Shown: piece after piece, positions 4,893 to 53,518 of the stretch
Numbering within the stretch: position 1 is the first letter of the stretch
Layout of the letters: every line of letters starts with the position of its first letter
Assembly: GCA_041691135.1 (NCBI GenBank)
Contig: JBEPVF010000002.1
Span: 192,001-256,000, forward strand
Origin: Candidatus Peribacteria bacterium
GTDB taxonomy: Bacteria; Patescibacteriota; Gracilibacteria; Peribacterales; Peribacteraceae
DNA: 64,000 nucleotides
Direction of reading: 5' to 3'
The notes under the pieces: generated by a model
Told to the model about the DNA's origin: nothing
The model's database searches: none
Seen by the model: the letters and a program-made list of their open reading frames with translations, nothing else
Position numbers and translations under genes: made by a program

Positions 4893-4932
4893 GCGGGGTG
4901 ATGGGAAAAAATACAAATGCTCTTGCTCCGGA

Positions 4933-5519: not shown

Positions 5520-5533
5520 CATTTTTGGGGTCA

Positions 5534-7246: not shown

Positions 7247-7374
7247 AAGGTGTGAGAGAAGAAGAGATCTGAATGGAAATCGAGACGACAACCGCAAGCG
7301 GCTATTACAAAATTTCTCCGGCAAATAAAATTTTCACTCTTCTTCCGATGAGCGGAGGAAACTCAGACCGTATT

Positions 7375-7488: not shown

Positions 7489-7623
7489 AAATGAGGAAGG
7501 GGAAGAAAACCAGAGACAGTGACGGTGTGGAATCCATGTTATGACAATGACCCCCATCTCCCTTCCAGCTTTCAAATATCCCATTCTGCTTAAATCTCCA
7601 TTTCTTATGAGCTAATCTGATTA

Positions 7624-24185: not shown

Positions 24186-24360
24186 CTAGTAATTATATCA
24201 TATTATTATGCCATATACAACAAACTATGACTAATAACTTACATGTGTAAAACCTCCAAAAGTATCAGATATCCATACAGCTACTCCCTCAGCAGCTATA
24301 CCACATTTTTTTACTAACGTGCTACTAAATGATAATTAGGTAAATACTCTAAAAAAGTGT

Positions 24361-24645
24361 TTATTCTAGGCTCGTTGGCACTTGATTAGGTTTTAAGTCT
24401 GCAATTAGAGTACCCGCGGCTTCCTTACAAACTTCACGTCCAGCGCGGCCAAAGAGTTTTATAAACCTATTAACTAGGTTATTTATTGTAACAATGGAAT
24501 TGGAATTTTCTATTGAAACTATCCCCATTTCTTTATCAATTATATTTAAGCCTTCTACTTTAGCAGCCTCAAACCAAGCTACAGGTCCCATGAGTAGCTC
24601 CTGCTCTCTAATTATTTTTAGCGCTATTTTTTCGTATATGTTCAT
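24361..24645 (-). CDS. Small helical hypothetical protein
   Basis: 94-aa ORF MNIYEKIALKIIREQELLMGPVAW..., co-oriented within the AT-rich cassette. Confidence 0.7.
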   Translation of the reverse strand: MNIYEKIALKIIREQELLMGPVAWFEAAKVEGLNIIDKEMGIVSIENSNSIVTINNLVNRFIKLFGRAGREVCKEAAGTLIADLKPNQVPTSLE

Positions 24646-24661
24646 GATGGCTATGTTGAAA

Positions 24662-25468: not shown

Positions 25469-25503
25469 ATGTACTTTAATTATAGCTTTTTTAAATTTTT
25501 CTG

Positions 25504-27542: not shown

Positions 27543-27723
27543 AAATTTTATAGCAACTATTAATACTTCAAATTTAGATTACAAGTTATTTTGACATATG
27601 TTAAGTCAATATTGCATAGACTAAGGACTCAAGTTAATGAGCCTAATAAAAAAATTTTCTCCTGACTAGACATTTCGTAGCTGGATGTTTATTCTTAATT
27701 TTAAACAAATAAATTCATTCCTT

Positions 27724-30027
27724 CTACTTATATTTTTTTAAATTTAACTTAGCTTCACCTAGTCTGATTAGTAAAATTGCCAGTGCTAATAAAGCTGATA
27801 GAGTAAAAAGTGTTACAATACCCACTATAAATTTACTTCTAACCTTTCCATACAAATCATCTGTATACATATCGATTTCAATGATACCAATTGTGTTTCC
27901 TTCACTATTTTTTATAGGAGCAATTCCTGAAACAAATTTTCCCCACTGATCAAAAATAGAGTCATAGGCTACTGGTTGCCTAAGAGCATCATTCAAATTT
28001 TGAGGAATGGGCGAAACATATCTTATGCCTGGTGCAACGTTTTCCTCAGTATCATCTATTTTCCCATCAAGATTATAATCAGCAGAAAAAGGTAAATTAT
28101 AATTGGAATCGGCATCAGCAACAAATTCCCATACATCTTTTATCTCAGTAGGACGCATGATATAAACATATCTAATATTTTTGTCCTGATTTCTTATTTC
28201 ATTCAATCTATTAAAAACTTTTTGATACTCAGTAAGCTTCATATCTTTTGCAAAATGCAGAGCATTTATGTCAGTTTCCTGAAACTCCATAGCAGCAGTT
28301 GCCGAAACAAATTTTAATTTGCTTAACAGATCATTTTTTACAATCTTCAATGTATAAAAATACATGAATACGATAACTAATAAAGATACTGAACTAATTA
28401 TAAGGATTAACAAATATAGTTTTTTGTTTTTCAAAAAGTTCATGCATTCTTTTAAAAGAGATCTATTAAACGCAGTTAACCTTATAAAAATTAGGAAGAT
28501 GAAAAGCGCAAAAAACCAAAACAGAGGGAGAAAAGTTTGCGAACTCAATTTACTCAAGTCACTAGCTCTCATGTCAGCTGCCATAACCGCTATGACATTT
28601 CCTTCCTTGTCTTTGATTGGTGCATAACCAGAAATTACTTTGCCCCAGTTATCTTGGTAGAAATCTTTATTGGCAAGAGGTCTGTTGTATCCTTCTAGAG
28701 CCTCTAAAGGCGGGTTTGTGTATATTTGTCCTGGCCATTGTAAATAATCTTGAGAATCAATTTTTCCATCACTATTCACATCAACATCATTAGTCGTATC
28801 GGCATCTGAATTTGCATATGGATTTATAGAATGGGAGTCGGCGACAAATTCAATCTTTGAAGGATCTGTTTTAGATTTCCTAAAAATATAGGCGAACAGA
28901 ATGTCGGCGTTGCTTATGCGGATTTCCTTTAGCTGAGATACTACTCTTTGCCACTCTGGTTTTTTCCAATCTGCTTCAACCTGCAGAGCCTCAATATCTT
29001 TAGGATCAAATGCCAATACTCCGGTTGTAGCTACTGATATGATTTTCTCCTTCATTCGCTGCATATTCAATGCATCGGTGTAGCGTTGAATACCGTATGT
29101 TAAACCAGCTGCAAAAAGAGCAAGACCAAGAATGATTCCTATGCTTCTCTTTGTAAGAAAAAAACCTCGCAGTCCGGATAGTAAGCGGGTTTTGATGGGT
29201 ATTCCTTCGGGCATTATAATATTTTGTTCTCCTGTTCCATTATTTGCAGCAATAGCCGCTTGTATCTTCTCTCTCCAAATTTTCTCGAAGAAGACCTTCT
29301 CCATTCCAGCCATCTCCGGATAATCGATCAAACAGGCACGTTTCTCTACATGATTAAAGCAGGCAATAGTGTCACCGGTAATGATTTTCTCGTACGAGAA
29401 AGAACATTCCTCTTGGGAAATGAGAAACGTTTTCCGATACTCAAATGGATCGCGCGATGCGAAACGCCGACCGAGCGGGGTATCGTGCGCGATGACACGC
29501 TCGAAGATATTGCGAGTACGGCGCTCGCGAAAATACTCGACAAAAAAATCACGGAGTGGATCCTCTTCTACAGTGTGCTGGACAGGCAGATAACGAAGCA
29601 TTTCTTTTCCTTTATCAAGCAAACGCATGTATGCCTGCTTCATTCCAGCTTCTCCTTCGAAGTGTTGCATATCCGGCCGGGTCTTATCCACTTTGAGCGA
29701 CGCGACATACGACTCAAAATTTTCGTGTCGGCGCAGTAGTTCTTCACGTTTCTGATTCGTATCTTGATGAAGCATTGTGGACACTGCGTCCAGCGATATA
29801 AGCGTGTACTTCCAGTTATCGTTAATCCATTCCTTCTTTACTATCTTCTTGCGAATCAATTTCTTCATCGCCTGATCAAGCACGCCAGGACTCTTTCCCG
29901 TTTTGGAAGCGATTTGCCGAGTGGTTAGGGCATCGTGTTCGAGAAGATTTTTCAGAATCAGGAGTTCCGTAGTAGAAAACCCCGCATCCTGTAAATACGC
30001 CTCGATGCTTGATGGCAAGGATTGCAT
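27724..30027 (-). CDS. TrmB-like HTH regulator fused to two membrane-anchored Cache-like sensor domains
   Basis: N-terminal wHTH and 'FEGEAGMKQAY' effector domain; two homologous TM-flanked domains (EFVAD...D.N.DGKID...PG..Y...D.WGK.[IV]SG.APIK...G). Confidence 0.75.
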   Translation of the reverse strand: MQSLPSSIEAYLQDAGFSTTELLILKNLLEHDALTTRQIASKTGKSPGVLDQAMKKLIRKKIVKKEWINDNWKYTLISLDAVSTMLHQDTNQKREELLRRHENFESYVASLKVDKTRPDMQHFEGEAGMKQAYMRLLDKGKEMLRYLPVQHTVEEDPLRDFFVEYFRERRTRNIFERVIAHDTPLGRRFASRDPFEYRKTFLISQEECSFSYEKIITGDTIACFNHVEKRACLIDYPEMAGMEKVFFEKIWREKIQAAIAANNGTGEQNIIMPEGIPIKTRLLSGLRGFFLTKRSIGIILGLALFAAGLTYGIQRYTDALNMQRMKEKIISVATTGVLAFDPKDIEALQVEADWKKPEWQRVVSQLKEIRISNADILFAYIFRKSKTDPSKIEFVADSHSINPYANSDADTTNDVDVNSDGKIDSQDYLQWPGQIYTNPPLEALEGYNRPLANKDFYQDNWGKVISGYAPIKDKEGNVIAVMAADMRASDLSKLSSQTFLPLFWFFALFIFLIFIRLTAFNRSLLKECMNFLKNKKLYLLILIISSVSLLVIVFMYFYTLKIVKNDLLSKLKFVSATAAMEFQETDINALHFAKDMKLTEYQKVFNRLNEIRNQDKNIRYVYIMRPTEIKDVWEFVADADSNYNLPFSADYNLDGKIDDTEENVAPGIRYVSPIPQNLNDALRQPVAYDSIFDQWGKFVSGIAPIKNSEGNTIGIIEIDMYTDDLYGKVRSKFIVGIVTLFTLSALLALAILLIRLGEAKLNLKKYK

Positions 30028-30176
30028 GACAAATTGACACTTTACCCCGATTTTTAACGATGTAAACGATCAAAAGTACCCTTTGCGATAGTAAGAATTT
30101 GAAATATGGGTATTTTGGCTTCGGGTAAAGATTATCTGACGTTCTATGAACTAATAGAACAGACCAACGAATCGCC

Positions 30177-30704
30177 TTATAATCCTTGTTTTTCCGCTGG
30201 CAGTTTAATGGTTCGTGGATCAGTAATTCCGGCATTCCATTCATTCTTAGAAGAAGCAAGTTCCATACCTGCGGCCCCCTGTAATTTTCCTGATTTCCAA
30301 TGCAACAACGGTATATCGTGATCCATTTGATCAGACCCAAGTGAAGCAATAGTTTTAGGAGGGGGATCGATATTGAATATCAAAATTCCAGTACCCCCCT
30401 TGCTAGTTATTATTGGTGTATTTAGAGCTTTTGCCTGGCACCAACTTTTTGGAGAAGTATACCTTTTGACTCCAGCAATTTTATCAGTCTCACCATCTGT
30501 AAATGGCAAGTCTGAGCAATTTAAGTCTGCTTCATCTATTGTAAAACCTTCAACGACATCCCACGACTGTGATTTATAAACTATGACATGGACCAACAAG
30601 TTACTCATAATGGGCAATTTTTTTACTGGTTCTGCAAAGCTTTCTGTTTGTGCACAAGAAGTCAGTAATACTAAGAGGCCAGTAATAAAAATTATTTTTT
30701 TCAT
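30177..30704 (-). CDS. Hypothetical lipoprotein (immunity-like candidate)
   Basis: MKK...LTSC lipobox; start overlaps the stop of the giant upstream gene (TAATG). AT-rich. Confidence 0.75.
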   Translation of the reverse strand: MKKIIFITGLLVLLTSCAQTESFAEPVKKLPIMSNLLVHVIVYKSQSWDVVEGFTIDEADLNCSDLPFTDGETDKIAGVKRYTSPKSWCQAKALNTPIITSKGGTGILIFNIDPPPKTIASLGSDQMDHDIPLLHWKSGKLQGAAGMELASSKNEWNAGITDPRTIKLPAEKQGL

Positions 30705-33700
30705 TATTTCAGTGCGATACGATAAATTGTAAATTTATCAGCTTTTTCATCAAGTCTATCGTATGACATAAAATGATACCGTATTGTATTATCAGCTTGG
30801 CGATTATAATCCCCATTATATTTTTTTTGCACAGAATCGTAAGCAGACACATATTGACCGTTAGTATCGAGCTTAAACTCACCTGTGCCTGAAGCAACAG
30901 GCGTGTAATCATTTACTAAATCACCGAAATTAGTATCCATAACCCATATGCCGTCTTGCTCTTTTTTTCCAATTACCATTGTGTGTGGAGTTGAACCGTA
31001 CATCATTTGAACAATATCACCTTCTTTTACATCAATTGAGCTAACTTTGTTTTTAAATGAATTAAATTTATTACCTTGATCTATAGCTATAACATTAGGA
31101 CTGCCATCGACATCCCATCTATAGCGCAGATCTACAAGTTCTCCGTTTCGAATTTCCTTACCATCATCGTGGTTAGAGGGAAGTAAAATACCTGTGGAGT
31201 TTATTATAAGAACTTTCCTCAGCCAATCTTTACACTCCAGTTGACCTGTGTCATGCGGAGACCCTCTTAACTCAAATCCTTTGACACCTAAACTTGTATT
31301 TTCAACGTACGATAATTCTCCGTTCGCATAATCTTTAATGAATTGGTCAATAATCTTCTTATTCCCCTCCGGGATCTGCCCATAATCAATATCAAATATA
31401 GAAGCAATTTTCTCGTTCATTCTAGTCTTCTCCTCAAGAGAAAAACTGTTCCACTTGTCTCCAAATAATTTGGGAATGTCCACCTCCGAATGAGAAACCT
31501 CCTTCACCGTAAACTCGCTCGTCGCCATCTGCGCTGTCGATCCGTCTTCGAAGCGAACAACCACGTTCAACCATGTCTGACCGTGGATCATGTGATTCGT
31601 GAGTACGCTTGCAGGAAGGGTAATGTAAAGACCATGACGTATGGCTGCCAAAGATTGTGAATCAATATCGGCATCTGATTTACCTGTTACATCAAAGAGT
31701 GCTGGCATAACACGTACATTCTGCACTCTCTTGTCACCGATTACATAGTCCAAACGAATGCGGATCTGATCGTCACTCGTAAATTCTGCACCGTTGATTG
31801 ATGCTGCGATCATATGTGGTGCAGCATTCGCCTCGTTGCTCGGGTTGAAGATTTGTTCGTAGCCGGCAATACTAAAGAGCGCTTTGAGCATTCTCTGTTT
31901 CGCCTGAGTATCTTTCTGAAGCGCCACAACCATGATCTTCTGCCAGGGAATAGCAGTGACCTGCTCCACTGTTTTTGCGTAGTCGACCATCTCAACTAGA
32001 GTCGATGTGACTAACTTCTGACTCAAGCCAGCATAGACTTTTGCAACCTGACTGTTGGCTGACGCATCCTGAGAAGACCAATTCAGAGCGGCACCCATTG
32101 CTTGCTCCATCGTCGGGTTCGCTTGCGCATACTGAGCGATGGCATTGACAATAGGTTCGGCAGCCATTGCATCTTTGAACTGCTGAGTGCCAAGAGTGAT
32201 ATCAAGACTGCGAATCAAATCTTGAGTTTCGCTATCAGGCATGAACATTCCCATCGATTCAAAACTGCCAAGCATGGCAGTCACCGAAGGATCATCCTGT
32301 AGAACGGCTTTGAGCTGTTTCTCCGTGTCACCGCCATAGGTGGAAACTTCATTCGTAAAATCTGTTTCCCAGCTATCCGGTAACTTCACGACAATCGTCC
32401 CATCATTCTCGACATGTGTTTTGTCGCCCAATACAATTGTCATACGCCGGTTGCCTCCGTTAATTGTATTGAGAGCCGCACTGAGCGCATCCACCATCCG
32501 AGCCTGCGCACGATCGACGTTCATTTGCGATTGCTCACTGGCAGTTGTCGGACTATTAGGCACATTGGCACCGTAGGTATAGATGCTCGGTAGTCGCGAC
32601 ACATCCATTGCACGATTAATCATCGCCGTATAATCGGCTTCCTTCTGCTGCAAAAAAGGATCAGAGGAAATTCTATTCTGACGCTCATAGAGAGCTGTTT
32701 GATCGGTCTGCAAATGAATCAACGAATCGATCTGCTCAGTCATATACCGATGACCCAGCGCAATAAGCGTATCGACATTGTCCGGAAAAGGCATGCCCGC
32801 TCCCCGACTGGCCTCTCGCATCTGGTAGACATGCTCATTCGAACGTGTGTAGCCACGCTGAACGACTGCATATACATCGTTGAATTCAGTTGCATTGCCC
32901 TTGAGCTGCAAAAACGCCAGTCGCACGCCGTCAGCGAGCAATCCTCCGACCGTCTCTTCCTGCGCATCTTTCAGTTGGGACAGATGTTCGCGTGTCATTT
33001 CAGCCTCTGCCTTCAGCTGATCAACAACGATACGGACTTCGATACCGAAGTTCCCTTTGGCTTTCAACTGGGCGGCATCGGACCGCTCATTCACTCTGTC
33101 TTCCGCCACTTTCTGAAAATTGACACAAAAAAGTTCCGGGCACAAACGCTGGCACAAGTCATCGACGCTCTCGGTAACCGTATATTCTTTGAAGTACTCA
33201 TAGATCATGTGGCGTCCGATATTTGCGATGCCCGGATCATTGATGTCGATCGTACGCAGTGCGGCCATCTTGTCGTCGAAGAGCTGTTTCTGGAGAGCGG
33301 CAGAAACCTGGCTCGCAGTTGAAATTGTTTCCTGTTTAAGATGTTCAACGATCAAATCGGCAATTAGCGCGGCAGCAGTTTCTTTTTGCTGATCCACATA
33401 CGCATCCAATGTCGGCGTGGCGGGAGACAATGGCCGTGGCGCCGACGGGCCATCGGTGGGAATAGCCGACCAAAGGCGCAAAGGTGTTTGGACCTTGAAT
33501 AACTTGCCGGTCTGATCGCCACCGACTACTCCGATAAGGTAGTGATTTTTGGGTGAAGCATGCTGGATCTGCGTGTACTGCGGCACCTGAAGCGTCTCGG
33601 GCAGCTGGGTCATAGGCCCCTTGCCAAGAGATTTTCCATCGAAGAGGGTTACGAGGCCGTCTCTGTTCGTGACATAGACAACCTCTCCATCGGGAGAACA

Positions 33701-34462
33701 GGTGATGTTGTTGATCCATGGTCCAGACATCGGTTGAACGATGCAATTACCGGACTGTACGTCGATAATGCTGACACCGCCGTTCTGATCTCCGCAAAGA
33801 ATATACTTGCCGGAGGGATCAACGGTAAAGGCAAGAACATGTCCGGGCACGGAGAAATTCTTTGTCTGAGCAGTCGTACTGTCGTAGACGGAAACAGTTC
33901 TATCCAAATACGAAGCCAACTTTTTACCATCCGGAAAGAAACACACGCCATCACCAGCAGGACCAGTGGCAGTTTGCTCACCTGTGTCGGTATTAAGCTG
34001 AAGAACCTGAGAACTCGACAGGGCAAAGGCGACTGTTCTACCGTCAGAAGACATCTCCATGCGTGTACCCCAATCGGGAAGCGTGAAGCATTGGAGCTGA
34101 GCGCCGCTCGAGGCATCCCACACACGACAGGTGTGATCTTGTCCGAACGAAATTATTTTTGTTCCGGTTGGATCGTAAGTGCATCGCCACACTTGTCCGT
34201 TGTGTCCGGCAAGTTCCTTTAATGGCGCGCCGTTTCTTGCATCGCGAATGACAATGGTGCTTTGCCCATACGTCGTTGTTGCAAGATGCTCACCATCGGG
34301 GCTGAGGGAAAGATCCACAAAAGATTCTGGGCCGCGATCCACCTCTGTGGAATCCTGGGAAGTTAGATGCGGTATCGCAGCCAAGGCGGCATCGAACGAC
34401 GCATAGGCAGGAACCTGCCGGTCTTCCAGGGATTCAAAGGAGGGATGGAACGAACGCGGCAT
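30704..34462 (-). CDS. 1252-aa protein: planctomycete-type N-terminal motif, WD40 propeller, helical stalk, C-terminal CHAP/NlpC-like domain
   Basis: MPRSFHPSFESLEDRQVPA; SPDG/GH..QV/RVWD repeats; C-terminal LECKDW...GDIVQM...PHTMVI...IWVMDTNF. Confidence 0.8.
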   Translation of the reverse strand: MPRSFHPSFESLEDRQVPAYASFDAALAAIPHLTSQDSTEVDRGPESFVDLSLSPDGEHLATTTYGQSTIVIRDARNGAPLKELAGHNGQVWRCTYDPTGTKIISFGQDHTCRVWDASSGAQLQCFTLPDWGTRMEMSSDGRTVAFALSSSQVLQLNTDTGEQTATGPAGDGVCFFPDGKKLASYLDRTVSVYDSTTAQTKNFSVPGHVLAFTVDPSGKYILCGDQNGGVSIIDVQSGNCIVQPMSGPWINNITCSPDGEVVYVTNRDGLVTLFDGKSLGKGPMTQLPETLQVPQYTQIQHASPKNHYLIGVVGGDQTGKLFKVQTPLRLWSAIPTDGPSAPRPLSPATPTLDAYVDQQKETAAALIADLIVEHLKQETISTASQVSAALQKQLFDDKMAALRTIDINDPGIANIGRHMIYEYFKEYTVTESVDDLCQRLCPELFCVNFQKVAEDRVNERSDAAQLKAKGNFGIEVRIVVDQLKAEAEMTREHLSQLKDAQEETVGGLLADGVRLAFLQLKGNATEFNDVYAVVQRGYTRSNEHVYQMREASRGAGMPFPDNVDTLIALGHRYMTEQIDSLIHLQTDQTALYERQNRISSDPFLQQKEADYTAMINRAMDVSRLPSIYTYGANVPNSPTTASEQSQMNVDRAQARMVDALSAALNTINGGNRRMTIVLGDKTHVENDGTIVVKLPDSWETDFTNEVSTYGGDTEKQLKAVLQDDPSVTAMLGSFESMGMFMPDSETQDLIRSLDITLGTQQFKDAMAAEPIVNAIAQYAQANPTMEQAMGAALNWSSQDASANSQVAKVYAGLSQKLVTSTLVEMVDYAKTVEQVTAIPWQKIMVVALQKDTQAKQRMLKALFSIAGYEQIFNPSNEANAAPHMIAASINGAEFTSDDQIRIRLDYVIGDKRVQNVRVMPALFDVTGKSDADIDSQSLAAIRHGLYITLPASVLTNHMIHGQTWLNVVVRFEDGSTAQMATSEFTVKEVSHSEVDIPKLFGDKWNSFSLEEKTRMNEKIASIFDIDYGQIPEGNKKIIDQFIKDYANGELSYVENTSLGVKGFELRGSPHDTGQLECKDWLRKVLIINSTGILLPSNHDDGKEIRNGELVDLRYRWDVDGSPNVIAIDQGNKFNSFKNKVSSIDVKEGDIVQMMYGSTPHTMVIGKKEQDGIWVMDTNFGDLVNDYTPVASGTGEFKLDTNGQYVSAYDSVQKKYNGDYNRQADNTIRYHFMSYDRLDEKADKFTIYRIALK

Positions 34463-34661: not shown

Positions 34662-35696
34662 CTACTCTGACTCCAACACCAAATCGTAAACCTCCTTGCT
34701 GATGCTTCCATCCTCGTATAGCTGCTTCGCTGCCTTGGCATACGTAATCATTCCAATATTCTCGCTCGTCTGCAGCACCGTCTTCAGTTCCACAATACGT
34801 CCGGTACGAATGATGTTCGATACGGCCGGCGTGTTCAGCAGGATCTCGCGCAATGCCACGCGTCCGCCACCGGTACGCGGCAGCAAGCGCTGGGCGACGA
34901 TCGCCGTGAGGGATAGCGAGAGCTGTGAACGGATCTGTTGCTGTTGATAGGCCGGGAACACGTCGACGATACGGTCGATCGTCTGCATCGTGTTGGGCGT
35001 GTGCAATGTAGCGAAGATAAGGTGGCCTGTTTCAGCCAGAGTGAGAGCGAGGGCAATTGTTTCCGGATCGCGCATTTCTCCGACCATGACGATGTCCGGA
35101 TCCTGACGCAGCACACGCTTCATCGCTTCGGCGAACGAGAGGAAGTCCTGACCGTACTGACGCTGACGGATCAGACCCTGGCCGCGCGGAAAGATGAATT
35201 CGATCGGATCTTCCAGTGTGATGATGTGCGCCGAGCGTTGCTGGTTGATGAAGTGCACGATGGACGCGAGTGACGAGGACTTTCCTGAACCGGTCGGACC
35301 GGTAAAGAGCACCAGGCCCTGGCGGAGGTTCACGAACTGCTGTGCGATCTGATCCAGACCGAGTTGTTCCAATGTGGGGATATCCTGCGGGATGATACGA
35401 GCCGCCAAGCCGACGTTGCCACGTTCGTAGTGACAGTTCACACGCAGACGAACGCCATCGGGTAGTTCGTACGACACGTCGATTTCGCGCATCTCCTTTA
35501 AACGCTTGTAGGATGTCTCGCCGATAACGCCGCGGACGAACTGGTCCACTTGGGCAGCGGTCATCACCTGCTTGCTCTGGGCAATCAGCTGTCCATCGAT
35601 ACGAAAGAGGATGGGTGAGCCCTCAGCGATGTGCACGTCGGATGCACCTTGCTTGAACGCTTTCTCGAATAGAAGGGTGGCGGGTTGGTTTGACAT
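34662..35696 (-). CDS. pilT: PilT/PilU type IV pilus retraction ATPase
   Basis: ASDVHI, GPTGSGKS, ITLEDPIE, LRQDPD...GEMRD, AETGHL..TLHT. Confidence 0.9.
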   Translation of the reverse strand: MSNQPATLLFEKAFKQGASDVHIAEGSPILFRIDGQLIAQSKQVMTAAQVDQFVRGVIGETSYKRLKEMREIDVSYELPDGVRLRVNCHYERGNVGLAARIIPQDIPTLEQLGLDQIAQQFVNLRQGLVLFTGPTGSGKSSSLASIVHFINQQRSAHIITLEDPIEFIFPRGQGLIRQRQYGQDFLSFAEAMKRVLRQDPDIVMVGEMRDPETIALALTLAETGHLIFATLHTPNTMQTIDRIVDVFPAYQQQQIRSQLSLSLTAIVAQRLLPRTGGGRVALREILLNTPAVSNIIRTGRIVELKTVLQTSENIGMITYAKAAKQLYEDGSISKEVYDLVLESE

Positions 35697-36258: not shown

Positions 36259-38127
36259 TTACGAACGCGGCAGTAACCAGCCGCGCTCAACTACCCATTG
36301 TTCAACGACATCTCGCGGCAGCCGCAAGTGCGCAACCAATTCATCGGGACCAAATGAATCTTCCGTTAATTGTGCCAGATTGAAGAGCAGAACAATATCC
36401 CGTCTCATTTCGTCACTTACCATTTCCGGTCCCCACTTCTCGCCCGCGCTCTTTTGATATGCATCCACGTCTGGTAACAGATAGTCACGAAAATCTTGTG
36501 CCACACGATCTCTTCTATAAACAGTTTTAGATCTAGGTGACTTTCCAGTCGGCTCAACAAAATTTTGCACTATTCGCGGTGGTGATGCAGCAGTTTCATG
36601 TTTGCCGTTCCCTCCGACAGGTACAACCGGTCGCATTGTCGCTTCTCCATTTACTCTGTCTGTAACTGGGACGGGAAGCTTCACTTCCATTCGCGCTGGA
36701 GCAGGTTGTACTGGTTTCACCGCTGCAGGAATCGGAGGAGCGACTGGCGGCTTTGGTGCCGGAACAGCGGGTGGTGCAGAAGACATCGGCGGTCGTAACG
36801 GGATGGGTGCTGCGGGCGGAGGTGCTGATGGCAAGCGTTGTTGAATAGTGCGGAGCATGGCTGCAACGGATGCTGAGGTCGTTGATTGTTGTCTTTCTGG
36901 CGCAGGCGGGACTGCAACCGTCGTATTTCTTTCTCCATGTTCGGTAAGAAGCGACGCAATGGAGGTGCCGAATTGCATGCTGCCATTCTGCGAGAGAACC
37001 GATGCCTGATACGCCTCGAATTGCGCGGGTGTAAATGGAACGCCGCGCGGCAAGTTGTATTGCATCACGTCGTGCAACGCAACCTGCCCCATCATAGTCT
37101 TTGCTTGCAACTGCATCGATGCTCTGCGGATCTCGGGATGCAGTCCTTTGCCAGACAGTAAATCGTTGTAGCGACTCACGCCATTCGGTTGCCTCCCATT
37201 CACCATCGACGCCAGCAAATGTGATCGTGTTCCCGGAGCACCGCCGACATTGTCCTGAATAATAATCGATGCGCCATTCGACGACACGGCTTCGGGGAGC
37301 CATTTTTTGATCATGCCGGTATCCTCATGCTGCGAGATGGTATCGAGGAAACGATTCAAGAGAACGACATCAAATGTTTCCGTCATTTTTGTGAGACCTA
37401 CGGCAACATCGCGCAACCATGCCTTCTGCACTTTCATTCCGGTGTGTCCGCCCCGCGTAAGATTGAGATAGCGATTGTCATCCGGCTGATAGGTCACAAT
37501 GGTGCCGATATGTTCCTGTAATGCCCGCAACACTGCCGGCGAACTGCCGCCATCCAGTAAGCGGCGTTCGTGCACCGGCTTGGGGTGTCGCTCAAAATGT
37601 CTCCTGATCGCATCGATGATCAGCGGCGTCACCAGATTTTTTTCGACAAGCGTATCGAAGTAGTCGGGCCCGTGAATAATCATTCCACGTTCACGCTCCT
37701 GACGGATGCTCGGCGGCAATTGCACCGAGAGCAGCGTAGCGAGGGCGCCCGGGCGCTGCACAACATAATGCTCCAGTTCTTGCCAGTACCTTCCGTCATG
37801 TTCCATGAGCGGTTTTATGGCAGACATATTACTTAATTGGTCCAGAATATCCTCCACATTCTCCACACCCAGACAGCGCTGATCCAGCTGACGAACAATC
37901 ACCTCGCTCGCACTGGGACTAAATCTGTCTATCCACGATGGCGCTTCAGTACTTGCATCGTCTAAATGGCGGGGAAAAAGATTGGCTGGTCCGTCCAGAT
38001 CAACCACGGTTTGAATGTTTTGCCGCTCAGGCGATACTCTTATTTCTGAAGATACTGCCGGCGACCCATTAGGAGAATCAGTGTGATCAGGAGAATCCAT
38101 AGAGTTGAGTGAGTGATAAGAACTCAT
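36259..38127 (-). CDS. Hypothetical protein with degenerate class I methyltransferase-like region and Pro-rich linker
   Basis: 622-aa ORF; RRLLDGGSS, FDVVLLNRFL, NGASIII patterns. Confidence 0.6.
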   Translation of the reverse strand: MSSYHSLNSMDSPDHTDSPNGSPAVSSEIRVSPERQNIQTVVDLDGPANLFPRHLDDASTEAPSWIDRFSPSASEVIVRQLDQRCLGVENVEDILDQLSNMSAIKPLMEHDGRYWQELEHYVVQRPGALATLLSVQLPPSIRQERERGMIIHGPDYFDTLVEKNLVTPLIIDAIRRHFERHPKPVHERRLLDGGSSPAVLRALQEHIGTIVTYQPDDNRYLNLTRGGHTGMKVQKAWLRDVAVGLTKMTETFDVVLLNRFLDTISQHEDTGMIKKWLPEAVSSNGASIIIQDNVGGAPGTRSHLLASMVNGRQPNGVSRYNDLLSGKGLHPEIRRASMQLQAKTMMGQVALHDVMQYNLPRGVPFTPAQFEAYQASVLSQNGSMQFGTSIASLLTEHGERNTTVAVPPAPERQQSTTSASVAAMLRTIQQRLPSAPPPAAPIPLRPPMSSAPPAVPAPKPPVAPPIPAAVKPVQPAPARMEVKLPVPVTDRVNGEATMRPVVPVGGNGKHETAASPPRIVQNFVEPTGKSPRSKTVYRRDRVAQDFRDYLLPDVDAYQKSAGEKWGPEMVSDEMRRDIVLLFNLAQLTEDSFGPDELVAHLRLPRDVVEQWVVERGWLLPRS

Positions 38128-48500: not shown

Positions 48501-51500
48501 ATGGTCAAGATCAATTCTTCCCAAGGCCTGACAGCGGCTGAAAGTTTGAACATAGACTACGGCATAGGTGAACGCATCGATAGCGGCCGCACCACTGTGC
48601 ATAGTCGAACCGAAAGAGCGTTCAGACCAGAGGTGGTGAGAACGCTGGAGGAAAGAATGCTCATGACATTACAGAGCGTTAATATGAACTTCCTGGCATT
48701 CGGCATAGGTCCGCACAAATATGGCGATGCAATCAACATCGACGGAGTCGATGTCGCCGTAACGCTGCAAGGAGCAAACGGATTTATCGTCAACAAAGAT
48801 GGTAGTATTCAAGCGCAAGACGGGGGTGGAATTGTTGTCTCATTCAAGCAAGATCAATTAGTCACCAAAGTAGTTGCTAAGCAGACCGGCAATGGGACGG
48901 GGCTGATCAATTTTAGTGAGCCTACCGGCAATGATTATCGACCGTTACCATCGACTGGCGGGACGATCGTCGCAAATGAAGTGTGCAATTCGGTGCAGAT
49001 TGTGCAAACGAGCGGTACTGCCAAGTATGTTTTGACTGGACTCTACACTCAGAAAGACGTGCCAGACGTGCCTAGCGACGCACCCGTTTCCGTACCGACC
49101 ACGGGTCCGGTATTGCCGATGCCGAAGATGGAATCTGTCACGCACACTGAATCACTCAACTTTTCATTTCCGGGCAGAGCCAAAGATCACACTGTTTTTC
49201 ACCTCGGAGACGGTGTGAATGCTGAAATAGCGTCCGCCGATGGATGGGGACTCGTGATAAAAGAAGGCGCACTTGTAACCGTTAGTGACGGACATACACA
49301 TGACAGACCCGATTCAGATCCGGGCGCGGGAGACATCATGCAAATGACGTTCAGTCCGTTTTTGGAGGGAATGTCTCGCATTAAAATTCAGAGCTTTAAG
49401 GAGTTCGGCCCTGCACAAGGACTTGTGTACTTCGAAACATTGAAAGGTCCTCAATATCTCCCAATACCTGAAAACGGTATCATTGAGTGGGACGGCTCCA
49501 CGATCATCAGTATGGCCATTCTCCCTAAGAGGGCACAAGGTTACGGTCTGACCGGATTTGATCGAGTGGTCACCGAACAGCAACCATCCATCTTGGTGCA
49601 TCCGCCGAAAGTCAATCCACTGGACAGCAAAGATCTCGCCAATGGAAACGATTTCCTCAAAGCCCGTCTTTGGCAGTACCAACAGCTCGCCACAACGCTC
49701 GACTTTCAGCTGGAGGCAGGCTCGGATCCCGACGGCATCGCCGCCATGGATGCCTTAGCGACGCAATTGACGATGCTCACGTCTATTTCCGCCGACGTGC
49801 AAAAGCAATTCGCCAATTTATCGGCGGCCGCGGTCAAAAAAACAAAAGGTCTCCAGCCACTGATAACTGACGCGCAGCTCGTCGATACCGCACTCTCGGC
49901 ACTCAATAAAGACTGGCAGCAGCGCATGCGCATAGTCAAATATCGCACCGGTAATATCATCACCGATGACGGAAGAATACTGGATCAGAAAAACCTTAAT
50001 CTTTCCGCCGGTCCGGGCACGCTCAAAACGAACGGGAACAGTGCGGTGCTTGTGCGTAGCATACCGGGCTTAGATGGCGCGTTGACGATGCAGACTCTGC
50101 GTGGAAAGGTCGATGGGCAACCGACGATCTTCAATCATGACACAACACTCTCCGCGAGTGGCGGACAAATCACCACGTTGGATTTCACGACGCTGAAAGG
50201 CTTGGTAACGAATGCGTCATTTATCGTTCAGTCCGTGAACGGCGAAACAGTGACGGTCAAATTCATGAAGGGAGAACAAGTCCTGAGCACGCAGAAAGTA
50301 GTGAGCGGGCAGCAAGTCAGCTTTTCACAAGCGGATGGAATGAGCGGCGTCATTATCCTGCATGCCCCAACGGGAAAATCCGCCAGCGGTTTGACGCTGA
50401 GCAACATCTCCTTTCAGATTCTACCCAACTACACCCCGCGAGACGTGGTTGCCGACATGTCCATCAAGAACAATGGCACGGTCGCCAAAGATTCTCAGCC
50501 GGACTGGCGCGCTCCCGCCAATGCCCAGGAGACAGCACGACTCACCAATTCCAACATCTACTTTGGACAAGCAGGCGGTGACCCGCATTGGGACTTAATG
50601 TGCTACACGAGCAATAATGACGGTCGGTATAATCGTTACGATGTGATCTCGAGCCAAGGCGACACGCACATAGATGGCCTGTTCTACCTGACATCGGAAG
50701 GTACGCAACAGCTCTCAACTATGTATTACTACATACTTCCCAGTGGAAAAGGTGTCGTCGTGAGCCCGGGCGCACCGAAAGATTTGATTTTGGACATAAA
50801 ATCATCAGGCTATTACCACATCGTAAACACGGGCGGAACCATGCAAAAAGAATCCGTGACACCGCCGACCGAGTTCACTCTGGAATCGAATTATATCGGC
50901 ACGTATACACAGCCAACCGATAAACCCGGCTTCACCACGAATAAGATCACAACAGACACGATGAAGCCGCAACGCGTGCTAATTGGAAGCGGACTGTTCG
51001 TCATGGATTTCATCGACCGCGGCCAGAAAGCCGGTGCCATTACAGCGGAAGTATGGACTGGGTATGGCAGCACCAATCGGAAAGCAGAGCTTCTGGCTAC
51101 CTACAAAGGAAATCTGAGTCCCAATACGGTCACACATTTGCAGACTAACGTAAGAGGATCATCGGCTCCAAGCCAACGCGATGAACCGATTCTGATTACC
51201 GTGGTCATCACTCTTCCCGATGGAACAATCCAAGAAAACACTGTCTATCTCAATCGCAGACCGAATGAAGCGATGGTCAACGTGCGAGACGCGGATGGCA
51301 CTCTCCATTCAGTGCCAAGGCCGCTTGGCAGTGACGAACAAGCTCGTTTGGATCATCTCATTCCCAAAATTCTGTACGCCGCACAAACCGGACAATCAGG
51401 CTACACCGCGCCATCAAATCTGGCCGATTTGTATAAGCAGTTGTACAACGTGACAGCCGATCCGCAAACCGTAGGCGCAGTATCCGGCGCACCGGCCACC

Positions 51501-52739
51501 GTTGTTCCAGGCAAGCCCGTGCAGCCGGCAGCCGGAGTGGCGTACAAGGCGATGGAAAATATTGGCGATAAAATGGATACGGCGATCGATGTGACACAGG
51601 TCTCTTTGGCGAACCTTAGGCGTAACGTAAACAATGCTGAAATAGGCGCCTTTCATTACAAGATTGTCACTGGCGATACGCTAACTGCAATAGCAGCAAA
51701 ATTTAAAATTCCAGATTGGCACACAATCTATAACGATTCTTGGAATGCTGACTTCCGTAAACTTCGACCAGATCCAAATAAGATACAGCCAGGTGATGTT
51801 ATCAACATTCCCATGCGTATGATTAGTAATGATCTTGAGATCCAAAACAAAATTCTCGGAATGGATACATCATTGCCGCCCAGCGCTGCTTTCTCACAAA
51901 TCGTAAATGCTCCTTTCCTCAGTACTACTACCTGTGCCCAAATTGTTGACACTACGTTGACCGAAATAAAAAACACCGACGATGCTCGAGAGTATCTAAA
52001 ACTTACCCCGGACGCGGCCATTGCCAAACAAGTTGCTATTAGTCAAAAGACGGTGCTTGAGGTCCTCAAAGGCAAAATGCCCGAGGCAGTCCATAAGATC
52101 TTTGAAAAGATTTTCAGTGACCCCATCGTAAATAGTACAAATCTGCTAATCAATAGCATAAAGGATTACAAAAATGGGAAACCCATAGATGAGGTAGTGA
52201 AAAGCTTTTCCATAATAATAACGACAGTAGCAACCTACGATCTGACAAATATGGAAGTTCTCTCTTCTTTGAAAGATATTGTTAAAGCTGTAATTCTTGA
52301 TACTGGCTTACGGATCCTGCATCCGAATCAAATAGAAATTAGCTATTCAGCGGATAAACAATTCGCCATCGATACTCTGGTTAGTAAGACGAACAAACTT
52401 ATAGATTCAACACAAGATCCTCGAGCTGTCATTCTTACTGTAGCACTTGGAGAATTCGTATGGAGAAGCACACATATTGATGGACTAAGCACGGCCTCTT
52501 TAGGAGATCAATCTGTTTTCTTAGATGCTGCTTTGGATGACAAGCTAAAAGACGCTGCTACAAAATACAATTTAGTCGCCATCGAGCAAATATATGAAGC
52601 TGAAATAAAATATTACGATACCCTAATAGCTCAGAAGATGCTCGACCCTCATAAGAAATCTTCAATGATTTCTCAGTTGAATTTATTTTTTGCCGGCATC
52701 CTTCAATTCTACAATCGAGAACGCATTATGTCTGTGTGA
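48501..52739 (+). CDS. ~1410-aa protein with planctomycete-type N-terminal motif, beta-rich domains, LysM and helical C-terminus
   Basis: RAFRPEVVRTLEERMLMT near the N-terminus; LysM YKIVTGDTLTAIA.KF...PNKIQPGDVINIP at ~51657-51812. Confidence 0.8.
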   Translation: MVKINSSQGLTAAESLNIDYGIGERIDSGRTTVHSRTERAFRPEVVRTLEERMLMTLQSVNMNFLAFGIGPHKYGDAINIDGVDVAVTLQGANGFIVNKDGSIQAQDGGGIVVSFKQDQLVTKVVAKQTGNGTGLINFSEPTGNDYRPLPSTGGTIVANEVCNSVQIVQTSGTAKYVLTGLYTQKDVPDVPSDAPVSVPTTGPVLPMPKMESVTHTESLNFSFPGRAKDHTVFHLGDGVNAEIASADGWGLVIKEGALVTVSDGHTHDRPDSDPGAGDIMQMTFSPFLEGMSRIKIQSFKEFGPAQGLVYFETLKGPQYLPIPENGIIEWDGSTIISMAILPKRAQGYGLTGFDRVVTEQQPSILVHPPKVNPLDSKDLANGNDFLKARLWQYQQLATTLDFQLEAGSDPDGIAAMDALATQLTMLTSISADVQKQFANLSAAAVKKTKGLQPLITDAQLVDTALSALNKDWQQRMRIVKYRTGNIITDDGRILDQKNLNLSAGPGTLKTNGNSAVLVRSIPGLDGALTMQTLRGKVDGQPTIFNHDTTLSASGGQITTLDFTTLKGLVTNASFIVQSVNGETVTVKFMKGEQVLSTQKVVSGQQVSFSQADGMSGVIILHAPTGKSASGLTLSNISFQILPNYTPRDVVADMSIKNNGTVAKDSQPDWRAPANAQETARLTNSNIYFGQAGGDPHWDLMCYTSNNDGRYNRYDVISSQGDTHIDGLFYLTSEGTQQLSTMYYYILPSGKGVVVSPGAPKDLILDIKSSGYYHIVNTGGTMQKESVTPPTEFTLESNYIGTYTQPTDKPGFTTNKITTDTMKPQRVLIGSGLFVMDFIDRGQKAGAITAEVWTGYGSTNRKAELLATYKGNLSPNTVTHLQTNVRGSSAPSQRDEPILITVVITLPDGTIQENTVYLNRRPNEAMVNVRDADGTLHSVPRPLGSDEQARLDHLIPKILYAAQTGQSGYTAPSNLADLYKQLYNVTADPQTVGAVSGAPATVVPGKPVQPAAGVAYKAMENIGDKMDTAIDVTQVSLANLRRNVNNAEIGAFHYKIVTGDTLTAIAAKFKIPDWHTIYNDSWNADFRKLRPDPNKIQPGDVINIPMRMISNDLEIQNKILGMDTSLPPSAAFSQIVNAPFLSTTTCAQIVDTTLTEIKNTDDAREYLKLTPDAAIAKQVAISQKTVLEVLKGKMPEAVHKIFEKIFSDPIVNSTNLLINSIKDYKNGKPIDEVVKSFSIIITTVATYDLTNMEVLSSLKDIVKAVILDTGLRILHPNQIEISYSADKQFAIDTLVSKTNKLIDSTQDPRAVILTVALGEFVWRSTHIDGLSTASLGDQSVFLDAALDDKLKDAATKYNLVAIEQIYEAEIKYYDTLIAQKMLDPHKKSSMISQLNLFFAGILQFYNRERIMSV

Positions 52740-52767
52740 CGACTTATGAATGAAGATCATTGCGAAA

Positions 52768-52792
52768 ACCCCGGCCAATCCATGGCCGGGGT
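52768..52792. terminator. Hairpin terminator between convergent genes
   Basis: ACCCCGGCCA-ATCCA-TGGCCGGGGT. Confidence 0.65.
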
Positions 52793-52837
52793 CGTGAGCA
52801 AACAAACGTCTGCTCAGCAGTAGTATTTTGTGTGCCG

Positions 52838-53344
52838 TCATTGTCGTTCGAACTTTCTTAGACATAACTTTGCGATCAGGCAGGCGAAGCCCACCAGAGT
52901 GCAGGTCGCGACGACGAGGCCGGTCTGCCCGCCGAGGCCAAGCGATCTTCCTATCTCTTCTCGAAGATCGTGGAGTATTGCGATGTCTGCGTGATACAGG
53001 AAACTCCACGCGATCCAAGGGACGACGATAACGCCGATCGTCCATGACAGCCAGAAGAACGCCCACCGTCGTTCATAACACCAGCGCCCGCTCGATCGCA
53101 TAGGGGTCATGAAGAACGAGAAGAAGGGCGACCAAAACCAACTGATTGCCAGTGGTTCAAGCCGCTCTGTTCCGGACTCCACGATGCAACCGGTCGAGCA
53201 GAAGAAAAGAAAGATAAACAAGAACGGATGACGCGCCACCCAACGGTGTAATGGGTCGACCGTATCATTGAATCTGACAACAAGGCCGTCAACGGCAGCG
53301 AACATCTTTGCACTCCGAAAGAGCCAGACGGGTTGAAAGAACAC
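52838..53344 (-). CDS. Hypothetical membrane protein
   Basis: 3-4 hydrophobic segments; AT-rich TTGACA promoter-like region at ~53355-53388. Confidence 0.55.
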   Translation of the reverse strand: MFFQPVWLFRSAKMFAAVDGLVVRFNDTVDPLHRWVARHPFLFIFLFFCSTGCIVESGTERLEPLAISWFWSPFFSFFMTPMRSSGRWCYERRWAFFWLSWTIGVIVVPWIAWSFLYHADIAILHDLREEIGRSLGLGGQTGLVVATCTLVGFACLIAKLCLRKFERQ

Positions 53345-53518
53345 AAAACACTTAATTATATTAAATTATAATAATTTTAAACTGTCAAATACTTACCAAT
53401 AAAGTTGGCAGGACGAAAATTCCCCACTCCTAATGTATTCGAGTTCTCCGCAATAGCCTGCCATTTTCATGCATACGAAGCATCGCCAAAAAAGCGAAGT
53501 CGGCGTATACTTATAAGA

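Follow-up and report, generated by a model that had tools for sequence, protein, structure and literature searches.

The ultrasmall cells of the CPR/Patescibacteria engage and exploit hosts by means that are poorly understood, and the giant gene P0001 of a Candidatus Peribacteria bacterium raises the question of what its product does and how its parts came together. We analysed it within a window of 64,000 nucleotides (contig JBEPVF010000002.1 of assembly GCA_041691135.1), to which all coordinates refer. P0001 is probably a giant mosaic polymorphic effector, with a swapped tip made of a LysM domain and a helical module, from a family of a Peribacteraceae-like CPR lineage. Comparison of the family's members shows an architecture of a basic leader, variable N-terminal domains, a stalk (predicted for P0001), a trunk and a replaceable C-terminal cassette. 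The gene and the region behind it are laid out as follows.

48501..52739, + strand: giant gene P0001, an ORF of 1412 aa with an alternative ATG upstream at 48357
48501..48620, + strand: non-hydrophobic N-terminal leader ahead of the motif, without a Sec-type h-region
48621..48668, + strand: leader motif FRPEVVRTLEERMLMT, aa 41-56, which aligns with LENR of P0006
48669..49700, + strand: N-terminal domain region, aa 57-400, with BLASTP matches to P0009, P0006 and P0011/P0012
49713..50057, + strand: presumed helical 'stalk', aa 405-519, predicted from the sequence only
50058..51320, + strand: conserved body, aa 520-940, made up of about three beta-sandwich domains (AlphaFold model, homologs)
51321..51620, + strand: helical linker of normal GC, aa 941-1040 (low pLDDT; 60-codon GC bins)
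51621..51632, + strand: GC change-point, codons 1041-1044
51657..51812, + strand: LysM domain, aa 1053-1104, of a variant type that carries an insertion (Pfam, HMMER)
51813..52736, + strand: AT-rich, all-alpha orphan module, aa 1105-1412 (single-sequence model; homolog searches empty)
52740..53404, no strand: spacer without a co-oriented gene or a tip remnant
52838-53344, - strand: convergent ORF of 168 aa with three hydrophobic segments

The frame of P0001 at its longest starts at 48357, and no clear Shine-Dalgarno sequence precedes either candidate start (48501 or 48357). The closest homolog, P0006, likewise opens with MV[KR] and aligns from aa 30. An initial annotation had placed a motif at 48621-48668, about 40 aa from the start; FRPEVVRTLEERMLMT occupies exactly those nucleotides, although the distance holds for the start at 48501 and not for the one at 48357. 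The same annotation's statement that a hydrophobic signal peptide is missing agrees with Kyte-Doolittle profiles, in which P0001 has neither a hydrophobic leader nor a transmembrane segment (maximum 19-residue mean over the whole protein, 1.18). Across the motif, 12-residue means peak at 1.10, compared with 2.30-2.82 in five Sec/lipoprotein controls, and 30 of 32 family leaders remain at or below 1.68.

Across the family the leader reads as basic residues followed by phi-E-x-L-E-x-R-x-phi-phi-S/T. The absence of the motif from orthologs had been named in advance as evidence against the proposed family, but it is kept in 13 of the 16 homologs with an intact N-terminus (the first 140 aa of P0013, P0015 and P0019 lack it), in all five giants from the relatives G074, G113, G181 and G002 and the L009 record (the G113 motif, YEDR, being read by eye) and in 14/14 further giant frames. 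Elsewhere in these proteins [LMIV]ExR is rare (0-1.1 per 1000 aa). A 25-position profile of the leader, A5, which scores 33.9 bits on P0001, finds exactly four sites in this 1.74 Mb genome, each N-terminal in a large protein or ORF. A genome-wide N-terminal enrichment, as the initial annotation envisaged it, holds for the extended profile but not for the bare tetrapeptide LE[DESQ]R, and only the former is specific. A5 matches occur in 20/60 other genera of the window's own family; of 21 matches outside the training set, 14 fall within open frames of at least 600 aa, all 14 close to the frame start.

The rest of the chain up to the linker is also shared with other giants. In a HMMER search against 1.84 billion representatives, P0006 was 41% identical over aa 213-1008 of P0001, and at least 11 further giants among the matches listed matched the body. 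BLAST aligned P0006 with aa 30-986 (37% identity over 979 columns) and with nothing past that, such that detectable homology stops inside the linker, at about aa 986-1008. By BLASTP, the N-terminal region is 32% identical to residues 3-405 of P0009, and P0011/P0012 match aa 229-354; no Pfam family matched aa 57-400. The region equivalent to the stalk is enlarged in the homologs P0020, P0003 and P0007. An AlphaFold model from a 15-sequence alignment (pLDDT 70.6), which covers aa 520-1010 only, is all-beta to about model residue 420, and Foldseek returned only generic beta-sandwich matches for it, with TM values of at most 0.18. This beta-sandwich body is the region common to most homologs, and a profile of it, A4, scores 617.7 bits on P0001.

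Since P0001 is among the training sequences of both A4 and A5, independent support comes from the homolog matches obtained with HMMER and BLAST. Both profiles match P0001, as in the definition of the family of giants (Peribacteraceae LExR giants). Among the genomes of the window's own family, A4 matched 5/22 and A5 matched 6/22, whereas each matched 0/178 genomes of the class's other families; relatives are, by name, Candidatus Peribacteraceae, Peribacter or Peregrinibacteria. Judged from these sequence matches, P0001 is a member of an apparently lineage-restricted mosaic family, the class being one of small genomes and the range a single family.

Beyond the linker P0001 has a tip of different origin, as far as its composition and its homologs tell. 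The LysM domain proposed at about 51657-51812 lies at those nucleotides; the Pfam model PF01476 scores 20.1 bits on the whole protein, slightly below its gathering threshold of 20.9, but reaches the threshold on the C-terminal 450 aa (24.3 bits) and on the isolated segment (29.4 bits, E 7.8e-7). Among the 150 HMMER matches listed, most cover only a stretch of about 55 residues of the LysM domain at 33-67% identity, and this LysM variant also adjoins PG_binding_1 in proteins of 216/217 aa. The helical module behind it (aa 1105-1412) has no homolog in our searches and no Pfam family even at E up to 5; the PDB gave no sequence match in the tip beyond LysM and the ESM Atlas no usable match. Its single-sequence model is helical, but with a pLDDT of 44 it does not give a usable fold. 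Pfam, PDB and homolog searches thus return no toxin or enzyme signature for the tip. The AT-richer DNA noted from about 51600 corresponds to a break in sliding GC and GC3, with the best change-point at codons 1041-1044 (nt ~51621-51632; GC 0.517 to 0.394, GC3 0.569 to 0.369). When 2973 windows of 1150 bp from the genome are ranked by GC, the tail comes within the bottom 1.0%, and GC is back to 0.54 directly after the stop codon.

Exchange of such tips is observed directly elsewhere in the family. P0011 and P0012 share 98% identity for 1194 aa, after which they are unrelated, and the lipase-like tip of P0011 recurs in locus L031 (30% identity) on an otherwise unrelated body. Locus L006 has an orphan copy of P0003 residues 1065-1538 downstream (71% identity), and in L026 a giant that bears a new tip is followed by a remnant matching the final 89 aa of P0007 (98.9% identical). 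Identified tips are Peptidase_M23 (46 and 31 bits) and, in one member, the CdiA-CT domain RNAse_A_bac (85 bits), with a weak Lipase match on another; inspection by eye suggests an M23-like tip in P0006 (HxxxD..HxH), without confirmation from Pfam, and several further tips are unassigned. These swaps and remnants support the proposal of a modular polymorphic family with exchangeable tips. Nor did we find an invariant C-terminus without a compositional break, which had been named as the contrary outcome: relatives' tips are swapped, and 12 of 16 relatives have an AT-richer C-terminal module, the tips being mutually unrelated in sequence. The best relative of P0001 is 37-41% identical and no close allele was found, so that its own cassette swap is inferred from the end of P0006 homology together with the GC break.

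A second giant gene lies in the window, in the following setting.

30704..34462, - strand: P0002, the window's other giant, whose leader motif spans aa 5-20 (nt 34403-34450), with a WD40 propeller
30177..30704, - strand: lipoprotein gene (LPAM_1) starting at the P0002 stop, immunity-like
34662..35696, - strand: PilT-like T2SSE ATPase directly upstream of P0002
27724..30027, - strand: TrmB-type HTH plus Cache-like membrane protein

The bodies of the two giants are distinct, as had been noted, with no BLASTP match at E 1e-3, and a third paralog bridges them. Of the plan that both were said to share, the leader motif and the overall arrangement stand, but Pfam does not show a peptidoglycan-related tip for P0002. 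The P0002 tip is AT-rich from codon ~997, and all three paralogs in this genome have a C-terminal GC drop; a drop of at least 0.10 occurs in five of 179 frames of at least 600 aa, three of which are these paralogs. In relatives, homologs of the TrmB-type HTH/Cache-like protein repeatedly occur beside giant genes. The PilT-like ATPase is present in 16/20 motif-positive and 28/40 motif-negative genera, and is without co-distribution with the leader motif.

P0001 departs from the family in what follows its stop codon. In 13/13 other family loci a co-oriented ORF of 107-271 aa starts -31 to +5 nt from the stop, seven of these ORFs appear lipoprotein-like by eye, and in several loci a small lipoprotein-like gene follows an M23-type tip. 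In contrast, the 665 nt after P0001 contain no co-oriented ORF of 70 aa or more; only + strand ORFs of 33-67 aa precede the next real gene on that strand, a P-type ATPase, in line with the earlier statement that no co-oriented immunity gene follows. No tip remnant was found downstream either (tblastn E values all >0.01, save for the query's own overlap with the last 12 residues of P0001). Because a coupled immunity-like gene is missing, the tip may be harmless to its producer, or may be a binding module rather than a toxin; this departure from the family rule fits a non-toxic role.

If P0001 is a mosaic effector, its ancestral tip would have given way to a cassette that came from a gene pool richer in AT, consisting of LysM and a 300-residue all-alpha domain without detectable relative. 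The leader would direct export along a path that does not rely on recognition of a Sec signal peptide, and the trunk would keep the tip at a distance from the producer cell. LysM would then anchor the tip to the peptidoglycan of, most likely, a host or a neighbouring cell, where the helical domain might bind or act on the envelope.

The origin of the tail could be explained without acquisition, by an I/K/L/N-rich helical domain or a local mutational bias. Compared with the body, the tip indeed contains more I (10.7%), K (8.1%) and L (10.4%), and this could underlie part of the AT shift. Nevertheless, GC3 drops together with GC at this position (0.57 to 0.37), P0006 homology stops just upstream, so large a drop is confined to the 5/179 long frames mentioned, and the break is equally present in two paralogs and in the 12/16 relatives with unrelated tips, all of which makes a purely compositional origin unlikely. 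An assembly chimera or a decaying pseudogene is highly improbable. Although the assembly has 35 contigs and an estimated contamination of 3.8%, and homolog searches with the tip were empty, the 1.1-kb AT-rich island stays in frame through 370 codons and opens with a bona fide LysM domain, and a chimera would need two joins because GC is normal again directly after the stop. A second assembly, from a public run, has a single 17-kb contig that spans 50800-53000 without joints and shows 0 differences; it excludes only an artefact of one assembler, since the run is probably from the same sample.

The effector function itself has a more serious competitor, rather unlikely in our view, in which P0001 is a surface adhesin or fibre, its C-terminal LysM sitting on the producer's own peptidoglycan, its N-terminal domains facing outward to a partner and its helical module being structural or an accessory of the anchor. 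The lone position of P0001 against 13/13 loci with an immunity-like gene, a tip without toxin or enzyme signature and the co-occurrence of this LysM variant with a second wall-binding domain, PG_binding_1, all agree with an adhesin, as do the production by Peribacteria of their own peptidoglycan and the proposal that their large variable extracellular proteins serve attachment (PMC4736985). Yet the tip position elsewhere in the family is held by M23, lipase-like and CdiA-CT RNase domains, the cassette of P0001 is foreign in composition, as exchanged tips typically are, and the conserved leader points to the N-terminal end as the one used for trafficking. A wall-binding LysM on a modular, beta-rich body would also suit a prophage tail-fibre or lysin-like protein. 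This origin has very little probability, given that tblastn of the tip found no match in 50,697 phage records, that P0001 is flanked by genes for a histidine kinase, a GGDEF protein and a P-type ATPase, and that the genes next to family members are of PilT-like and HTH-Cache type rather than from phages.

Polymorphic toxin systems (Rhs/YD-repeat proteins, CdiA, MafB and LXG toxins) combine a shared N-terminal end and trunk with unrelated C-termini, a downstream immunity gene and orphan cassettes, and Rhs/YD-repeat proteins have RHS/YD repeats and a core with a PxxxxDPxGL-type junction. The giants resemble them in a common N-terminus and trunk with unrelated C-termini (P0011/P0012), in AT-richer tips, stop-coupled small genes and downstream orphan or remnant cassettes, and in the CdiA-CT RNase A domain of one member, for which the Pfam match is the tested link. 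They differ in their leader, their beta-sandwich trunk and their host, a CPR family, and P0001 further lacks an immunity-like gene, a recognisable toxin and a downstream remnant. Pfam found no RHS-family match in P0001 and 20 full-length relatives and no haemagglutinin/TPS, PAAR, LXG or WXG domain in P0001 and the relatives scanned; with NCBIfam included, P0001 has none of the trafficking domains TPS, PAAR/VgrG or LXG/WXG and no hydrophobic signal. Leader and trunk are new for a polymorphic-effector system. Peptidoglycan-hydrolase effectors with lipoprotein immunity include the Tae/Tse-type pairs of the T6SS, which the M23 tips with small lipoprotein-like genes in several giant loci resemble; unlike these pairs, the giants were seen in no T6SS context, and P0001 has LysM and an orphan domain without a partner gene.

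The passages available from PMC4736985 describe variable, very large proteins (1,219-3,861 aa) of Candidatus Peribacter riflensis, predicted to be extracellular and proposed for attachment, in what is, by the names of the relatives, the same lineage. Those passages say that most of the cysteine-rich large proteins bear signal peptides, and the paper's main text has no mention of LysM, M23 or WD40; unlike our description of the giants, the passages refer neither to a leader motif nor to cassette exchange or immunity genes. Omnitrophota giant proteins are implicated in cell-wall degradation (bioRxiv 10.1101/2023.11.21.568195); they too are very large, come from small bacteria that are putatively predatory or symbiotic, and are linked to cell-wall attack. 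They belong to another phylum and are far larger, and the likeness is by description alone.

The locus points to a polymorphic-effector arsenal of one lineage, with a searchable N-terminal tag, a trunk, swappable tips and coupled small genes; the leader is a candidate secretion signal, the giants and their coupled genes are candidate effector-immunity pairs, and the activity of the orphan LysM-linked domain could define a new effector type. A bolder reading, which we regard as possible though doubtful, takes the leader, as a relative of the LEPR-XLL tag on giant proteins of other phyla, to be the export signal of a new Sec-signal-independent route by which one family of CPR episymbionts would bring exchangeable cell-wall and nucleic-acid effectors to host cells, with the P0001 tip as a new, immunity-free, peptidoglycan-directed class; such a tip would need no immunity because the producer would lack its target. 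The locus may also lend a function to the LEPR-XLL motif annotated on giant proteins; the papers found mention the motif by name only, and none describing its function came to light. Like the giants, NCBIfam NF012209 (LEPR-XLL; model name 'LEPR-8K') has a short N-terminal motif on very large proteins. P0001 (LEERMLM) and most members differ from it in having D, E, T, S, A or K for P, and score below the model: the N-terminal 100 aa of P0001 gave nothing even at E up to 10, and the best score in this genome was 12.4 bits, for the fourth motif protein. The P0003 leader (MEPRFMM) reaches 17.8 bits, above the curated cut-off of 17, and the motif of the giant from G002 reads LEPRQLL.

The gene studied here encodes P0001, a giant protein described together with two further giants of the same genome (G000), namely P0002 (window 30704-34462, - strand) and a third giant outside the window, and with a fourth protein that bears the same leader. 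Apart from P0002, the features concerned are as follows.

Window 48501-52739, + strand: P0001 open reading frame, 1412 aa; the longest frame runs from 48357
Window 51657-51812, + strand: LysM domain, P0001 residues 1053-1104, assigned by Pfam score
G000 contig 2, 50719-55827 (= L007:6720-11828), - strand: third giant, 1702 aa, which has this leader too, along with a WD40 propeller
G000 contig 2, ~23201-26132 (= L008:3202-3528 + 3452-6133): fourth leader protein, with DUF11 repeats

Neither candidate start of P0001 (48501 or 48357) is preceded by an obvious ribosome-binding site, and 48501 was kept because the closest homolog, P0006, also begins with MV[KR] and aligns with P0001 from residue 30. 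Counted from this start, FRPEVVRTLEERMLMT comprises residues 41-56 (exactly nt 48621-48668), which confirms the position given to the motif in the initial annotation. The claim that P0001 lacks a hydrophobic signal peptide was likewise correct, as no hydrophobic stretch of the signal-peptide or transmembrane-helix kind is present and the 19-residue hydropathy maximum is 1.18. The genome measures 1.74 Mb in 35 contigs (relatives of the host range from 0.7 to 1.9 Mb). Homologs with names are annotated as Candidatus Peribacteraceae or Peribacter (product names 'hypothetical protein', 'M23 family metallopeptidase' and 'LamG-like jellyroll fold domain-containing protein'), and one locus belongs to a Candidatus Peregrinibacteria MAG. 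Judged by these relatives, the host is probably a Peribacteraceae-like bacterium of the Candidate Phyla Radiation.

The motif, which the initial annotation saw in both giants of the window, is indeed found in homologs. The tetrapeptide [LMIV]ExR occurs within the first 140 residues of 13 of the 16 homologs with an intact N-terminus (it is absent there from P0013, P0015 and P0019), always amid basic residues and then in the context phi-E-x-L-E-x-R-x-phi-phi-S/T, and it is rare elsewhere in these homologs. All five giants examined in relatives (G074, G113, G181, G002 and the L009 record) carry the motif, with the G113 leader counted by eye as a YEDR variant that the regular expression missed; in L030 the convincing copy of the leader is an LDDR variant. 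A weak body match in G041 has a classical signal peptide in place of the motif. The 12-residue hydropathy maximum does not exceed 1.68 in 30 of 32 leaders, the two exceptions lying upstream of likely starts, and ranges from 2.30 to 2.82 in five signals of Sec or lipoprotein type found at these loci.

A genome-wide scan for the motif had been proposed with a literal pattern that proved poorly discriminating: its 9 matches among 5622 frames include three real leaders but not the third paralog. Bare LE[DESQ]R showed no N-terminal enrichment genome-wide, and only the extended motif is informative. The extended profile A5 (25 positions, built from ten leaders) did isolate the leaders: with E allowed up to 10, its matches genome-wide number exactly four and lie in P0001, P0002, the third giant and the frameshifted DUF11-repeat protein (contig 2 ~23.2 kb). 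Because all four sites were training sequences, this search shows that nothing else in the genome matches. Among 60 other genera of the taxonomic family, 20 had a match at E <= 0.01. Open frames of at least 600 aa contain 14 of the 21 non-training matches, and in all 14 the motif lies 16-139 residues from the beginning of the stop-to-stop frame, a short way after start codons. In a class-wide sample that doubles as a false-positive control, A5 matched 6/22 genomes of the taxonomic family and 0/178 others at E <= 0.001.

Searching 5.8 billion proteins by word index with the whole of P0001 returned only P0001 itself. Exhaustive HMMER searches found P0006 (1705 aa), which is 41% identical over residues 213-1008, as well as eleven more giants with matches to the central region, and BLAST placed the region common to P0001 and P0006 at residues 30-986, with no match beyond. 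The beta-rich domains supposed in the initial annotation are recovered in an AlphaFold model of residues 520-1010 (15-sequence alignment, pLDDT 70.6), which has about three beta-sandwich domains and, after them, helices of poor prediction quality. Foldseek returned generic beta-sandwich proteins alone (TM <= 0.18), from which no function was drawn, ESM Atlas gave only 0.76-0.77 for the body, under the level meaningful even as a lead, and the single-sequence AlphaFold model of the tip (pLDDT 44) was too poor for a fold search.

Comparison of P0001 with P0002 found no similarity, in agreement with the initial annotation for the P0001 body and 30704-34462. The first 335 residues of P0002 (leader and WD40 propeller) are 66% identical to the third giant, which has part of its beta-sandwich body in common with P0001 and a sub-threshold M23 match at aa 1228-1314. 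Other family members have LamG domains or a novel N-terminal domain. The family is a mosaic. A body profile matched 5/22 genomes of the host's own taxonomic family and 0/178 genomes of 33 other families of the class. In the fourth leader protein a frameshift apparently separates the 108-aa N-terminal ORF from the 893-aa ORF, and there is no C-terminal GC drop.

The initial annotation had further proposed exchangeable C-terminal tips, and for the family this holds. The homologs P0011 and P0012 match at 98% identity for 1194 residues, after which their ends (526 and 620 residues, respectively) are unrelated; the former end is lipase-like by eye (its L031 homolog matches Pfam Lipase weakly) and the latter is M23-like, by eye only. 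The lipase-like tip of P0011 recurs in L031 (30% identity), where the rest of the body is unrelated, the tip of P0014 is found again in L023 and that of P0002 in L028. Pfam searches over the last 450 residues of 19 giants assigned Peptidase_M23 to three, CdiA-CT RNAse_A_bac to one (L030; 85 bits, at the extreme C-terminus), Lipase to one, LysM to one (P0001) and no domain to 13. Two loci of relatives also carry tip sequence downstream of a giant.

L006:11002-12456: orphan cassette downstream of P0003, 71% identical to P0003 residues 1065-1538
L026:~7250-7516: tip remnant downstream of a giant, 98.9% identical to the last 89 residues of P0007

The L026 giant's own tip differs from the P0007 tip, although the P0007 remnant sits downstream of it. 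No tip remnant was detectable downstream of P0001.

The AT-richer DNA noted from ~51600 corresponds to a break at codon 1041-1044 of P0001, with a GC of 0.517 before it and 0.394 after it (GC3 0.569 and 0.369, respectively). This break lies 35-55 codons past the end of P0006 homology and just before the LysM domain; the tail is within the lowest 1% of 2973 genome windows in GC, and GC is again 0.54 directly past the stop. A second assembly, from a public run that is probably the source sample, spans 50800-53000 in one contig with 0 differences, so the AT-rich island is not an artefact of one assembler. An AT-richer tip is found in all three giants of the genome, with GC falling from 0.508 to 0.358 at codon 997 in P0002 and from 0.568 to 0.372 at codon 1358 in the third giant. 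The genome has 179 open frames that reach 600 aa; only 5 of them have a GC drop of at least 0.10, and the three giants rank 1st, 2nd and 5th; the remaining two are an HTH-Cache gene in an AT-rich island beside P0002 and an unrelated LTD surface protein. Among giants of relatives, 12/16 show a GC drop of 0.07-0.18 within the last 40% of the gene, and in the L009 giant GC falls early, already at codon 512 of 2002. A subfamily of three (L033, L034 and L035, in genomes G245, G251 and G153) has no GC drop; these leader-bearing proteins of 877-1044 aa lack body homology, share the C-terminal ending W-[IV]-[ED]-Y...ST-x-Y-[QS] and may be a separate cargo class on the same leader.

Elsewhere in the genome, an unrelated surface protein (contig 17 9289-13563, + strand, 1425 aa), by eye with a signal peptide and a C-terminal transmembrane anchor, is AT-rich in its C-terminal third, where GC declines from 0.51 to 0.38. 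The lowest-GC windows of the whole genome form an AT-rich island of ~7.5 kb (window 23051-30526; contig 2 215051-222526; GC 0.32-0.38) that starts at the 3' end of the P0002 gene and takes in the lipoprotein gene coupled to it, the HTH-Cache gene and several ORFs for membrane proteins or enzymes.

The LysM domain reported at ~51657-51812 in P0001 scores marginally in the whole protein (20.1 bits; Pfam threshold 20.9) and clearly as an isolated segment (29.4 bits). The assignment is supported by the HMMER search, in which most of the 150 matches listed cover only the ~55-residue LysM stretch (33-67% identity). This LysM is a variant with an insertion, and a wall-binding role for it, as predicted from sequence, is supported by the co-occurrence of the same variant with PG_binding_1, which it adjoins in fused proteins of 216/217 aa. 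The subtype with the conserved insertion, W..[IL]Y....N..FR..RP.PN.I.PGD (window 51657-51812, P0008, P0010 and P0038), is widespread and occurs in tandem in P0008 and P0010.

The ~300 residues after the LysM are predicted to be all-helical, are rich in I, K and L, and have no segment of transmembrane grade. No relatives of this tip (aa 1110-1412) were found among proteins of 166-531 aa, proteins of 532-2000 aa gave only the self-match, and the HMMER protein search found no relative of the helical module either. ESM Atlas returned no usable match, tblastn against phage records no match, and a PDB sequence search only LysM-containing chains (E 0.085 or worse); no second copy of the tip was found in the own genome or in any of the relatives' loci examined. 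The sole Pfam match at E up to 5, DUF438 (E 0.095), was treated as noise.

At each of the 13 other loci whose downstream sequence was available, there is a co-oriented ORF (107-271 aa) with its start -31 to +5 nt from the giant's stop, and seven of these coupled ORFs have a lipoprotein-like start by eye. The stop of P0002 is overlapped by a downstream lipoprotein gene and that of the third giant by a 129-aa ORF. Downstream of P0001 there is no coupled gene, only ORFs of 33-67 aa, and the next + strand gene, 665 nt away, encodes a P-type ATPase; the initial annotation had rightly seen no co-oriented immunity gene here.

At the family level, the features by which polymorphic toxin systems are defined are present: the trunk is conserved, tips are exchanged and AT-rich, small genes are coupled to the giants, cassettes occur as orphans, and there is a bona fide toxin domain. 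None of the known trafficking domains or repeat types occurs. We therefore regard the family as a new form of polymorphic toxin system, with a leader related to LEPR-XLL. Planctomycetes proteins often begin with a similar LEDR-type motif. The LEPR-XLL model NF012209 (cut-off 17) matches the homolog leader MEPRFMM at 17.8 bits; its best match in the present genome reaches 12.4 bits, and it does not match the P0001 leader. For P0001 itself, no immunity gene follows and no toxin was recognised in the tip; it behaves as a family member in architecture and history but may serve binding rather than killing. P0001 would be exported via its leader, its tip would be displayed on a stalk, and the protein would dock on peptidoglycan. 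Neither this leader nor the family was found described in the literature searched on LEDR/LEPR-XLL motifs and Peregrinibacteria polymorphic toxins. Peribacter is reported to have large, strain-variable extracellular proteins that are thought to mediate attachment (PMC4736985); the accessible part of that text makes no mention of the leader, LysM, M23 or cassette exchange.

Two genes beside P0002 have counterparts near giants of relatives.

Window 27724-30027, - strand: HTH-Cache gene, encoding a TrmB-type HTH, repeated Cache-like periplasmic modules and transmembrane segments
Window 34662-35696, - strand: PilT-like ATPase gene, directly upstream of P0002

HTH-Cache homologs adjoin giants in four genomes (L006:2018-5689, L009:411-3622, L019:1-681 and the window), with 37-46% identity over the longest matches, and may be sensors controlling the giants. 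A PilT-like ATPase is also encoded directly upstream of a giant in G002 (L021:4281-5318; 77% identity), and in G008 (L006:14479-15453) one lies 4 kb from a giant. As leader-linked export machinery it was rejected, since it is common across the 60 genera, in 16/20 motif-positive vs 28/40 motif-negative ones, and is thus not co-distributed; of the 17 genomes with both, 6 have it no more than ~15 kb from a motif site, which is a lead only. For an ORF at 36259-38127 (- strand, 622 aa), in which neither a Pfam family nor a transmembrane segment was found, one paralog lies next to the third giant (contig 2 57615-58310) and another at contig 2 ~185.9 kb.
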